Assembly (NCBI GenBank): GCA_017508065.1
Contig: JAFVZR010000112.1
Location: 1-52,313 of the forward strand
From: Candidatus Methanomethylophilaceae archaeon
Lineage (GTDB): Archaea; Thermoplasmatota; Thermoplasmata; Methanomassiliicoccales; Methanomethylophilaceae
DNA: 52,313 bases
Reading direction: 5' to 3'
The position numbers were made by a program, and so were the translations under genes. Below, piece after piece: positions 17,463 to 19,701 of the stretch; positions within the stretch are counted from its first letter, which is position 1, and every line of letters begins with the position of its first letter. Below the pieces are notes generated by a model. That model saw nothing but the letters and a program-made list of their open reading frames with translations. It made no database searches and had not been told where the DNA came from.

Positions 17463-17966
17463 TTATTCCATTACGATCATCTGTATCTGTTGCGGCCCAT
17501 CGATGGTGGAATCGAATACCTTCAACTGACGTAGTACTGGGTCTATCACCATAGCAAAACCGATGTGTCCCCCGAACAATCCGTTCTGGGTCTTTATGTC
17601 CGTATCCGACATGAAACATCCGCAACCCAGGTGTGAGTGGTACCATCCGATTATACGGTCACCATTCTTCAACTCATCTATCTCATCGATGAGCTGGGTC
17701 ATATCTGATTGATCGAATCTTACGCTGGTCTCGTCCGCTTCTAATTCGGATGATATCACACCTGTCGCGATAGCATATTCGCCATCATCGTCCTTGTAGA
17801 CCTTTCCGACGATGAGTCCCATGATCTCGGAATCGCGCAACAAACCCTCATCACCGTGGTCCGTTATGACGTCTATGAGGTCGTCACGGATGAAGAACGG
17901 AACTCCACGTACGGAGCGCTTTTTCACTTCTGGCTTATATTCATCCACACTTACAATCCGAGTCAT
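17463..17966 (-). CDS. JAMM/MPN+ metalloisopeptidase (Rpn11-like deubiquitinase / Ubl-processing protease)
   Basis: The full MPN+ motif is present, with 'EIMGLIVG' supplying the Glu and 'GWYHSHLGCGCFMSDTD' supplying HxH-x7-S-xxD. The ATG at 17966 overlaps the E2 stop as ATGA. The track's 56-codon N-terminal extension was rejected. Confidence 0.9.
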   Translation of the reverse strand: MTRIVSVDEYKPEVKKRSVRGVPFFIRDDLIDVITDHGDEGLLRDSEIMGLIVGKVYKDDDGEYAIATGVISSELEADETSVRFDQSDMTQLIDEIDELKNGDRIIGWYHSHLGCGCFMSDTDIKTQNGLFGGHIGFAMVIDPVLRQLKVFDSTIDGPQQIQMIVME

Positions 17967-18445
17967 TGTGTGCCACCGTAATGGATCTCTGCATCGAATT
18001 TGGGCGAATCGTCCGAAAAGTACTTCGCTGCGTCCATACACGATTCCGTACCGAACGGGCTCATTGGGTTGGGGTTGGAGACAAGGATCTCCACGCCTCT
18101 GAGGAACGTGAGCAACGGTGTTCCAAAGTCCCAAGTGTCCAACATCTTGGTGCAGACGTATCCTCCGTCCTCAGGGTCCATGATGTTAGGGTGGAATATC
18201 TTGGATTTCCATCTGACCTCTGGTTTCTGCATACCATACTCTTCAGTGAGTATGATATAGAATTCGTGTTCGGTAGTGGCCTTTCCGGGAGCTTCGTATC
18301 CTACGACCTTGCTCATGTGCATATCTATACGAATGGGGAATTCCGCTCTTTCGGAATCGAATTTAAAATCCGAACCGAGGTACTTTCCGCAATCCCTCAA
18401 TTCCGTTGCGATACGTCTTTTCAGAACTTGTGGTGGGAGCCCCAT
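17963..18445 (-). CDS. Ubiquitin-conjugating enzyme (E2, UBC fold) with canonical HPN...Cys active site
   Basis: 'KPEVRWKSKIFHPNIMDPEDGGYVCTKMLDTWDFGTPLLTFLRGVEILVSNPNPMSPF' parallels UbcH5 '[57 protein letters not shown]'. The catalytic Cys codon is at 18154-18152. The track start at 18451 is a TTG, and an ATG lies at 18445. Confidence 0.85.
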   Translation of the reverse strand: MGLPPQVLKRRIATELRDCGKYLGSDFKFDSERAEFPIRIDMHMSKVVGYEAPGKATTEHEFYIILTEEYGMQKPEVRWKSKIFHPNIMDPEDGGYVCTKMLDTWDFGTPLLTFLRGVEILVSNPNPMSPFGTESCMDAAKYFSDDSPKFDAEIHYGGTQ

Positions 18446-18687
18446 CGACAACCGCCTTCCGGATCTGGAATCATTTCAAGAACATCATCGTTCAGAAGTC
18501 CTGCATCCGGAACCTTAGTTTTTCCGGACAACAGTTTCTTGCCTTTCTTGAGGACATATGCGCCCGCATCCAGATTCCAGTACTCTCCTGCACTGACGAT
18601 AAGATCGTTCACGGTCTCGTCAGGTTCCGCTTCCATCCTAAGACTTGTTCCGTTGGCAAGATTCTTTATTGTGAGCCTAATGGTCAT
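18421..18687 (-). CDS. Ubiquitin-like beta-grasp protein precursor (88 aa; GG followed by a 9-aa tail, CRWGSHHKF)
   Basis: 'LRMEAEPDETVNDL' parallels ubiquitin 'TLEVEPSDTIENV', and 'KKGKKLLSGKTKV' parallels 'FAGKQLEDGRTLS'. A di-Gly sits at residues 78-79. The ATG at 18687 shares 1 nt with the E1 stop (TAATG). The track's 22-codon extension was rejected. Confidence 0.75.
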   Translation of the reverse strand: MTIRLTIKNLANGTSLRMEAEPDETVNDLIVSAGEYWNLDAGAYVLKKGKKLLSGKTKVPDAGLLNDDVLEMIPDPEGGCRWGSHHKF

Positions 18688-19457
18688 TACGATTCCCTCC
18701 CATGGTTCGGACAGGTCGGATCGATGTCCGCCTCTACAGTGAACATATCGCATAACGTTCCGTCATAATAAGTAACGTTCGTTATGCACAGTTCCGGATG
18801 TCCAGATATTATCTTCATGGTTTCACGGACCTGCATGGCGGCCACGATGGCAGTGGTGGTCACATCGGATGCGAGGTGTGGTGTGAATGATGAATTACCC
18901 GTGCATGTGTGTCTGGTTTCCATGGTCTTCACATGCGTACGGTTGGACACGCATTGTAGGCATGGTCTTCCGGGGAGGATGACGTGGACCTTCCCTCTCA
19001 TGCCATCGGTAGCTCCATCGATGTATGGGATACCATAATAGCAAGTGGTGGCGTTAAGGTCCATCCTTGCAAGTATGTTGTCCAAACAACCCAATGCGAT
19101 GTCGAATCCCTCTATATCGACGTCCTGTATCCTGCCAACGATCGGCACAATCTCTACATCCGGGGCTAGAAGGGATGCACGTTCGGCTACGATCTCGGAT
19201 TTCATACCCTTCTTCACATCTGAGTCGGTGAAGAACATGCATCTGTTGAGATTGGACAGTACGATATCATCCATGTCCACAACGGTGATCCTCTTGAATC
19301 CTGCAAGTACGAGGTTCTTGACGACCTCGTTCCCAAGTGCTCCGGCACCTGCGACGAGGACATTGGATGAACGTATCGCATCCTGGTCCACCCATGTGAT
19401 GCGCCTTTGGCGATCATATCTGTCCTTGTCCTCAAAACCCGCGGATACGGTGTCCAT
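18687..19457 (-). CDS. ThiF/MoeB/E1-like Ubl-activating adenylyltransferase (256 aa)
   Basis: The motifs 'RYDRQ', the Rossmann loop 'VLVAGAGALGNEVVKNL' and 'VDMDDIVLSNLNRC' are present. Zn-type pairs 'CLQC' and 'CPNH' occur, and 'HTCTG' is a candidate cross-over-loop Cys. Confidence 0.9.
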   Translation of the reverse strand: MDTVSAGFEDKDRYDRQRRITWVDQDAIRSSNVLVAGAGALGNEVVKNLVLAGFKRITVVDMDDIVLSNLNRCMFFTDSDVKKGMKSEIVAERASLLAPDVEIVPIVGRIQDVDIEGFDIALGCLDNILARMDLNATTCYYGIPYIDGATDGMRGKVHVILPGRPCLQCVSNRTHVKTMETRHTCTGNSSFTPHLASDVTTTAIVAAMQVRETMKIISGHPELCITNVTYYDGTLCDMFTVEADIDPTCPNHGRES

Positions 19458-19506: not shown

Positions 19507-19701
19507 ATGGCGCTGAAGTTGCCCGACCATTCACACTGTGTACATTGCGGAGATCCGATCCCTTTTGGTGAACAGTATTGTGATGAAAAGTGTCAGGATT
19601 CATTCACCAAGGAGTCCAAGAGGACTCGTATCAAGGATTTCGCATTCTATTCCACCGTGGCCTTGGCGTTGGTGGTCATTGTTTATGCCTATATCCTTTG
19701 A
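19507..19701 (+). CDS. DUF2116-like zinc-ribbon protein with a C-terminal TM helix
   Basis: 'CVHCGDPIPFGEQYCDEKCQ' is followed by a basic linker and the hydrophobic 'FAFYSTVALALVVIVYAYIL'. Confidence 0.6.
   Translation: MALKLPDHSHCVHCGDPIPFGEQYCDEKCQDSFTKESKRTRIKDFAFYSTVALALVVIVYAYIL

Follow-up and report, generated by a model that had tools for sequence, protein, structure and literature searches.

A putative stop-loss origin for the C-terminal tail of an archaeal ubiquitin-like protein encoded across the start of its E2 gene

The window analyzed here, a stretch of 52,313 nucleotides from a Candidatus Methanomethylophilaceae archaeon, encodes a ubiquitin-like protein (Ubl) that continues for nine residues beyond its Gly-Gly pair, and the codons for these residues run into the start of the adjacent E2 gene in a different frame. 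This arrangement raises the question of whether the tail is a propeptide maintained by selection or an incidental product of the overlap, and how a modifier that carries such a tail could be activated. The initial annotation favored the former view, treating the precursor state as a designed feature and the overlap as a constraint on the evolution of both genes. Our best explanation, to which we assign a probability of about 0.75, is that the functional protein would be a 79-residue modifier with a passenger tail created by stop loss, that the co-encoded JAMM protease likely trims this tail, and that the position of the stop codon would be nearly neutral.

The cassette and the modifier that it encodes

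The locus is a conserved E1-Ubl-E2-Rpn11-like JAMM operon of the order Methanomassiliicoccales, family Methanomethylophilaceae, and consists of four overlapping genes that run in one direction on the minus strand. The features discussed below are as follows.

18687..19457, minus strand: E1-like activating enzyme, 256 aa, ThiF/MoeB-sized (Pfam ThiF, 3.7e-49); upstream of the Ubl gene in 30/30 loci
18421..18687, minus strand: Ubl precursor gene, 88 aa plus stop, by translation
18451..18456, minus strand: Gly78-Gly79 codons GGC GGT, the predicted mature C-terminus; IPDPEGG invariant in 30/30 orthologues
18424..18450, minus strand: post-GG tail CRWGSHHKF, 9 aa, codons TGT CGA TGG GGC TCC CAC CAC AAG TTC, followed by TGA at 18423-18421
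18445..18447, minus strand: CGA codon (Arg81), the stop-loss site of a former TGATG stop-start overlap; a TGA stop in the sister species
18421..18445, minus strand: two-frame stretch of 25 nt, read as Ubl tail and stop and as the first eight E2 codons and the first base of the ninth
17963..18445, minus strand: E2 conjugating enzyme, UBC fold, 160 aa, with HPN motif and Cys (Pfam UQ_con, 2.3e-10, above cut-off)
17463..17966, minus strand: Rpn11-like JAMM/MPN+ metalloprotease, 167 aa (Pfam JAB, 5e-13, above cut-off)
18451..18457, minus strand: AGGCGGT, a putative Shine-Dalgarno-like sequence 5 nt before the E2 ATG, pairing with the 16S 3' end at 6/7 positions

Reading of the minus strand and translation confirmed all of the coordinates given in the initial annotation for the Gly-Gly codons, the tail, the stop, the E2 ATG and the 25-nt overlap. 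At the E1/Ubl junction (TAATG), the TAA stop of E1 and the ATG of the Ubl share one nucleotide, and at the E2/JAMM junction (ATGA), the JAMM ATG overlaps the E2 stop. The gene order E1-Ubl-E2-JAMM was identical in all 30 of the related loci fetched. The Ubl was present in 54 of the 61 genomes sampled from the order Methanomassiliicoccales, and the E2 was found in 73 of the 301 genomes sampled from the phylum Thermoplasmatota; no gene for a RING-type E3 was found within the cassette. Divergently from the E1 gene, positions 19507-19701 of the window (plus strand) encode a 64-aa DUF2116 treble-clef zinc-ribbon protein (Pfam, 3.8e-17).

Two other classifications of the cassette were considered and rejected. 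For a defence system, PADLOC returned generic E1 and JAB matches only, with none for the Ubl or the E2, and the cassette occurs in 54/61 genomes of the order. For a SAMP-type system, a search of the genome found no member of the ThiS/MoaD family, and the JAMM scored far below the desampylase cut-off. In the literature, we found no description of this cassette in Methanomassiliicoccales or Thermoplasmata; the archaeal operons termed 'Cluster III' in PMC5654768, the species of which are named in a figure only, may include relatives.

We modeled the Ubl with AlphaFold2 on the basis of 30 orthologues (mean pLDDT 82.6) and obtained a beta-grasp with the order strand-strand-helix-strand-strand, for which a Foldseek search of the PDB retrieved ubiquitin, Hub1, SUMO, NEDD8 and ISG15 (target-normalised TM mostly 0.8-0.9, E about 1e-6). 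The family profile matched di-ubiquitin chains at about 1e-5 and single ubiquitin at 0.004-0.06, and the sole Pfam match was TUG-UBL1 (19.5 bits, under the cut-off of 23.3). In the alignment of the 30 orthologues, P74, D75, P76, E77, G78 and G79 are invariant and conservation ends at G79; tail residues 80-88 had pLDDT values below 50 in the model and are predicted to be disordered. Because IPDPEGG is invariant in these orthologues and was also found in 44 database relatives, the Gly-Gly end is no product of chance. The best explanation is that the functional modifier is a 79-residue beta-grasp protein ending in IPDPEGG, which is predicted to be attached covalently to lysines via the E1 and the E2.

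The initial annotation had set the tail against the conservation of the Gly-Gly pair, and the two indeed differ among orthologues: GG is invariant in 30/30, whereas the tail varies between 0 and 10 residues with no conservation of its sequence. At the 30 loci, tails of 0 aa (7 loci), 1 aa (13), 2 aa (2), 4 aa (1) and 9-10 aa (7) were observed, such that at least one residue follows GG in 23/30 orthologues; the seven loci of the 9-10-aa group are six from the genus of the window and one, L022, from another genus. The 44 database relatives were distributed similarly over 0 aa (10), 1 aa (18), 2 aa (5), 3 aa (1), 5 aa (2), 9-10 aa (6) and over 12 aa (2), and Cys was the commonest first tail residue among them. 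At one locus, L024, the junction reads GGA TAG CCATGG, with TAG directly after GG, and the same placement of TAG was seen in G041, G044, G048 and G052. Since Methanomassiliicoccales encode pyrrolysine with TAG, occasional read-through in these orthologues could yield a conditional tail.

The E2 matched PF00179 (UQ_con) at 40.7 bits (cut-off, 27), contains the sequence FHPNI...VC, and had Ubc13/UBE2N and Rad6 as its best PDB matches. Its ATG at 18445-18443 opens the reading MGLPPQVLK. In 30/30 loci the E2 begins with an ATG located 0-8 nt downstream of the Gly-Gly codons, and this ATG is followed by a conserved N-terminus, M-[GSP]-[LY]-P..VL..R[IL], that forms an N-terminal helix; in many loci the aligned ATG is the sole start candidate. 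Because the position of the ATG and the N-terminus after it are conserved in the 30 loci, the sequence comparison supports 18445 as the true E2 start, in agreement with the initial annotation, which had placed the post-GG tail across the E2 start and this start upstream of the Ubl stop. The 3' end of the 16S rRNA on contig C70 reads ...GGATCACCTCCT, and the Gly-Gly codons might conceivably serve as the E2 ribosome-binding site. Genome-wide, GGCGG was not enriched upstream of starts (30 vs 26), and neither was GAAGG.

Removal of the residues after Gly79

E1 enzymes adenylate a free C-terminal glycine carboxylate; therefore, any residues after Gly79 would have to be removed before activation. 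By analogy with characterized precursors, we infer that the full-length 88-aa Ubl would be inert with the E1 until trimmed. The last gene of the cassette encodes a candidate for this step. In the JAMM, the active-site motif E...HxH(x7)S(x2)D is complete, and E47, H110, H112, S120 and D123 are invariant in the 26 orthologues aligned, including those in which the Ubl ends at GG. Its profile matched eukaryotic Rpn11 (7e-25), CsRpn11 (4e-20) and CSN5 (2e-18) in the PDB, and the desampylase model gave 32 bits compared with a cut-off of 130. By these sequence comparisons, the operon JAMM is closer to Rpn11/CSN5 than to a SAMP-type JAMM1.

We further considered a model of the complex of the JAMM, the pro-Ubl and Zn. 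The score was 0.88, compared with 0.03 for the best control, and the mark applied to such scores is reached by 58 of 80 solved complexes and by 2 of 110 mismatched pairs; solved complexes similar to JAMM/pro-Ubl exist, and the pass may thus reflect likeness only and is no proof of binding or activity. Three runs shared at least 95% of the contacts, with a partner pLDDT of at least 85. In the model, Ubl residues 73-82 contact E47, H110, H112, S120 and D123, and GG is located at the Zn site.

Such processing has been described in other prokaryotes. The precursor CsUb-pre of Caldiarchaeum subterraneum (87 aa, with the 9-aa tail CGEPIRRAA) is refractory to E1 until CsRpn11 cuts it exactly after GG (PMC5654768), and this cleavage is specific to the Rpn11-type JAMM and is not performed by the SAMP-type JAMM (PMC6043591). 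In bacterial BilA, a conserved Gly is followed by up to nine non-conserved residues, which are removed by the JAB protease BilC (PMC10557695). On the strength of these two precedents, the intact catalytic residues and the complex model, we infer that the co-encoded Rpn11-like JAMM probably trims the tail after Gly79. Since the JAMM is equally conserved in tail-less species, its main role cannot lie in maturation and is most likely deconjugation, with tail maturation as a facultative extra.

Efficient cleavage of the tail in the window is not guaranteed, because bulky residues just after the cut site (C79E, G80W) blocked processing in Caldiarchaeum (PMC6043591), and the Ubl of the window has Arg at P2' and Trp at P3'. 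The tail might also be removed by a protease other than the operon JAMM, for which an unspecific carboxypeptidase or a second JAMM could be considered. The genome does contain a second JAMM gene, on contig C87 (L042:1447-2079, minus strand; Prok-JAB, 2.5e-7), with a short, HvJAMM1-like product that retains an intact HSHP...S..D motif (HxH...S..D), and the genome (94% complete) yielded no ThiS/MoaD-type SAMP that could be the substrate of this enzyme. However, the Caldiarchaeum JAMMs are strictly partner-specific, in that only the Rpn11-type enzyme cuts the ubiquitin precursor (PMC6043591). Moreover, translation of the operon JAMM is coupled to that of the Ubl and the E2, and the complex model supports binding. 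We consider it unlikely that another protease takes the place of the operon JAMM.

Origin of the tail and selection in the overlap

A comparison with the sister species points to the origin of the long tail. In a maximum likelihood tree of concatenated E1, E2 and JAMM sequences (midpoint-rooted), L004 was the sister of the locus in the window, with a support of 0.992. The Ubl/E2 junction reads GGA TGC TGA TGG in L004 and GGT TGT CGA TGG in the window. In the sister species, a stop codon directly follows GG-Cys and runs into the E2 ATG to give TGATG, and the T/C difference at window position 18447 alone sets a 1-aa or a 9-aa tail. Because the sister species has GG-Cys-TGA-TG where the window has GG-Cys-CGA-TG, the 9-aa tail is a stop-loss (TGA to CGA) read-through of the N-terminal codons of the E2 in the other frame.

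The frame of the long tail closes at the first out-of-frame TGA, within the E2 codons CTG-AAA. This TGA is made by the conserved E2 codon for Leu8 and that for the next residue (CTG-A..), and its position in conserved E2 codons fixes the tail at 9-10 residues. Both the sequence and the length of the tail are those to be expected by chance once the stop was lost. The E1+E2+JAMM tree requires at least three changes of the tail state within one genus and an independent long tail in L022, and a tail-less clade lies at its midpoint-rooted base. An assembly error as the source of CGA was rejected, since this codon is shared by six other species-level genomes. Ubl forms of 88-89 aa recur in independent assemblies; for example, P0006 was found on 72 contigs.

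We compared the codon differences in the overlap pairwise among the seven long-tailed loci. The E2 frame exhibited 73 synonymous and 30 non-synonymous differences and the tail frame 6 synonymous and 94 non-synonymous differences, counts that derive from non-independent species pairs. Four E2 codons in the overlap, for instance, distinguish the window from L002; all four differences are synonymous in the E2, and each alters a tail residue. Because of these opposite ratios, purifying selection in the overlap is apparent in the E2 frame only, and the tail is a passenger. The view that the overlap constrains both genes is not borne out by these counts.

One alternative is that the tail is a selected propeptide, a safety catch that would hold the Ubl inert until the JAMM licenses it, with two-frame coding constraining both genes. 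In its favor, one or more residues follow GG in 23/30 orthologues, and at least six species of the genus have retained the long form; moreover, Cys, which most often comes first in the tail, also opens the tail of the Caldiarchaeum precursor. However, 7/30 orthologues and 10/44 database relatives end exactly at GG, one base flips the tail length between sister species, the differences in the tail frame are overwhelmingly non-synonymous (94 vs 6), and the E2 ATG, together with the former stop-start context, leaves no choice for the first tail residues, CRW. We judge a selected propeptide to be decidedly improbable. The notion of the precursor state as a designed feature likewise fits poorly with the 7/30 orthologues that end at GG, the 13/30 that have one extra residue and the origin of the long tail in a TGA-to-CGA stop loss. 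A lineage-specific use of the long tail may nevertheless exist, because the long form has persisted in six or more species of this genus.

It could also be supposed that the long-tailed Ubl is unprocessed and inactive in conjugation in this lineage, and that the system is decaying or used non-covalently. The Arg and Trp near the scissile bond would be consistent with this idea, given that comparable bulky substitutions blocked CsRpn11. However, all four genes are intact in the long-tailed species, the catalytic residues and GG are invariant in them, and the E2 frame is under purifying selection, which makes a loss of conjugation very improbable. An E2 start elsewhere, namely at the in-frame TTG at 18451, two codons upstream of the ATG (31-nt overlap), or at a downstream codon (no overlap), is scarcely credible: several relatives have ATG, GTG or TTG at the upstream position, but TTG 18451 is not conserved among the loci, the upstream codon is missing from many of them, an ATG aligned with 18445 opens the conserved N-terminal helix in 30/30, and there are no in-frame starts between 18445 and the Ubl stop.

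These results are in line with a stop-loss passenger tail, for which we propose the following course. An older GG-Cys-TGA-TG junction, with the stop overlapping the E2 ATG, would have mutated from TGA to CGA, and ribosomes would since have run through the first E2 codons in the other frame to the first out-of-frame TGA. The resulting tail would be a disordered passenger, whose sequence is set by the N-terminus of the E2 and would have no specific role. As with the one-residue tails of most relatives, it would be cut after Gly79 before activation by the E1. The most likely cutter would be the co-encoded Rpn11-like JAMM, the conserved main job of which is probably deconjugation. With the JAMM removing anything encoded after GG, it would be nearly neutral where the stop codon lies, and its position would drift.

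The junction among relatives and in known systems

An exhaustive profile search revealed two predicted in-frame Ubl-E2 fusions, P0047 and P0076, among metagenomic relatives, at the following positions.

L048:259-1008: Ubl-E2 fusion P0047, 249 aa
L049:1742-2509, also L050:155-922: Ubl-E2 fusion P0076, 255 aa

A word-indexed database search for longer (fused) relatives found none, which is weak evidence. In P0047, residues 1-77 match Ubl residues 3-79, and those from 79 on match the E2 starting at its residue 2. The two parts are thus joined as GG-Ala-[E2 residue 2], and no Met lies close to the join; the gene is located two genes upstream of a JAB gene. In P0076, the alignment with the E2 begins at residue 88, and this fusion was found on two contigs from two runs, adjoining a ThiF gene. 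The predicted fusions are consistent with the removal of whatever follows GG.

Other relatives differed in their architecture. P0037 (289 aa) contains two tandem Ubl units, each with a PDP-x-G-like end, followed by a hydrophobic C-terminal region, and has the appearance of either a di-Ubl precursor or an anchored Ubl. In P0052, P0061 and P0077 (184-185 aa), a related Ubl domain that lacks the GG end is fused to a C-terminal domain of FHA-like appearance (...NGT.LNG...), so that the same beta-grasp would here serve in a form that cannot be conjugated.

The junction forms observed thus comprise GG-stop, GG-X-stop overlapping the E2 ATG, out-of-frame tails of 9-10 aa and in-frame Ubl-E2 fusions. 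We tentatively raise the idea, which we consider doubtful, that they belong to one evolutionary continuum made neutral by a GG-specific JAMM, in which cleavage of a fusion would free the modifier and its E2. If so, the fusions would correspond, in prokaryotes, to the ubiquitin-fusion genes of eukaryotes, and conjugation in the long-tail genus would depend wholly on JAMM activity.

Trimming of a post-GG tail is, as a phenomenon, already known from CsUb-pre/CsRpn11 and BilA/BilC, and the present case belongs to a different lineage and cassette. What is new is that the tail results from stop loss, is labile in evolution and is not itself maintained by selection. Losing the stop in a stop-start overlap can suffice to create such a tail, which does not have to be a propeptide by design, and the natural series of tails, from 0 aa to a whole E2, joins the two experimentally studied cases of JAMM-matured prokaryotic Ubls. 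For annotation, the end of the mature Ubl would be the GG and not the end of the ORF, and expression work would be affected in that the full-length protein is expected to be inert with the E1. The stakes of the tail finding alone are modest; the wider eukaryote-type Ubl/E2/Rpn11 cassette in gut methanogens is of more interest.

The window resembles the Caldiarchaeum system in several respects. Both encode an archaeal ubiquitin-fold modifier that is 87-88 aa long, has its GG near residue 78 and ends in a 9-residue tail that starts with Cys, and both have the gene for an Rpn11-type JAMM beside the cassette and a eukaryote-type UBC E2. However, the Caldiarchaeum E1 is larger, having been modeled with eukaryote-like domains that include a C-terminal Ubl domain, and that system has a small RING E3 and a divergent Rpn11 gene, whereas the E1 of the window is ThiF-sized, the cassette has no RING protein, and its four genes are co-directional and overlapping. 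In addition, the tail in the window is an out-of-frame read-through of the E2 and is evolutionarily labile, and trimming, which was shown by experiment in Caldiarchaeum, is predicted here.

Similarly, the bacterial Bil system (BilABCD) is an operon of E1, E2, JAB and Ubl genes with no E3, and in its Ubl 0-9 non-conserved residues come after a conserved Gly. Bil differs in being an anti-phage island system, in which the E1 has two domains and the E2 is divergent. The cassette of the window, in contrast, has a UQ_con E2, an Rpn11-like JAMM and a minimal E1, is near-universal in the order and lies next to housekeeping genes. The sampylation system of Haloferax (SAMP/UbaA/HvJAMM1) likewise combines an archaeal Ubl that ends in GG with a ThiF-type E1 and a JAMM protease, but it operates without an E2, and its modifiers are of the ThiS/MoaD type, a Pfam family that was not found in the genome of the window.

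Finally, the precursors of eukaryotic ubiquitin, SUMO and NEDD8 also carry residues or whole proteins after GG, which are removed there by a deubiquitinase, and the predicted in-frame Ubl-E2 fusions of the relatives recall the eukaryotic fusions of ubiquitin to ribosomal proteins. In eukaryotes, however, maturation is mostly carried out by cysteine proteases and Rpn11 is locked in the proteasome lid, whereas the candidate enzyme encoded in the window is a free JAMM.
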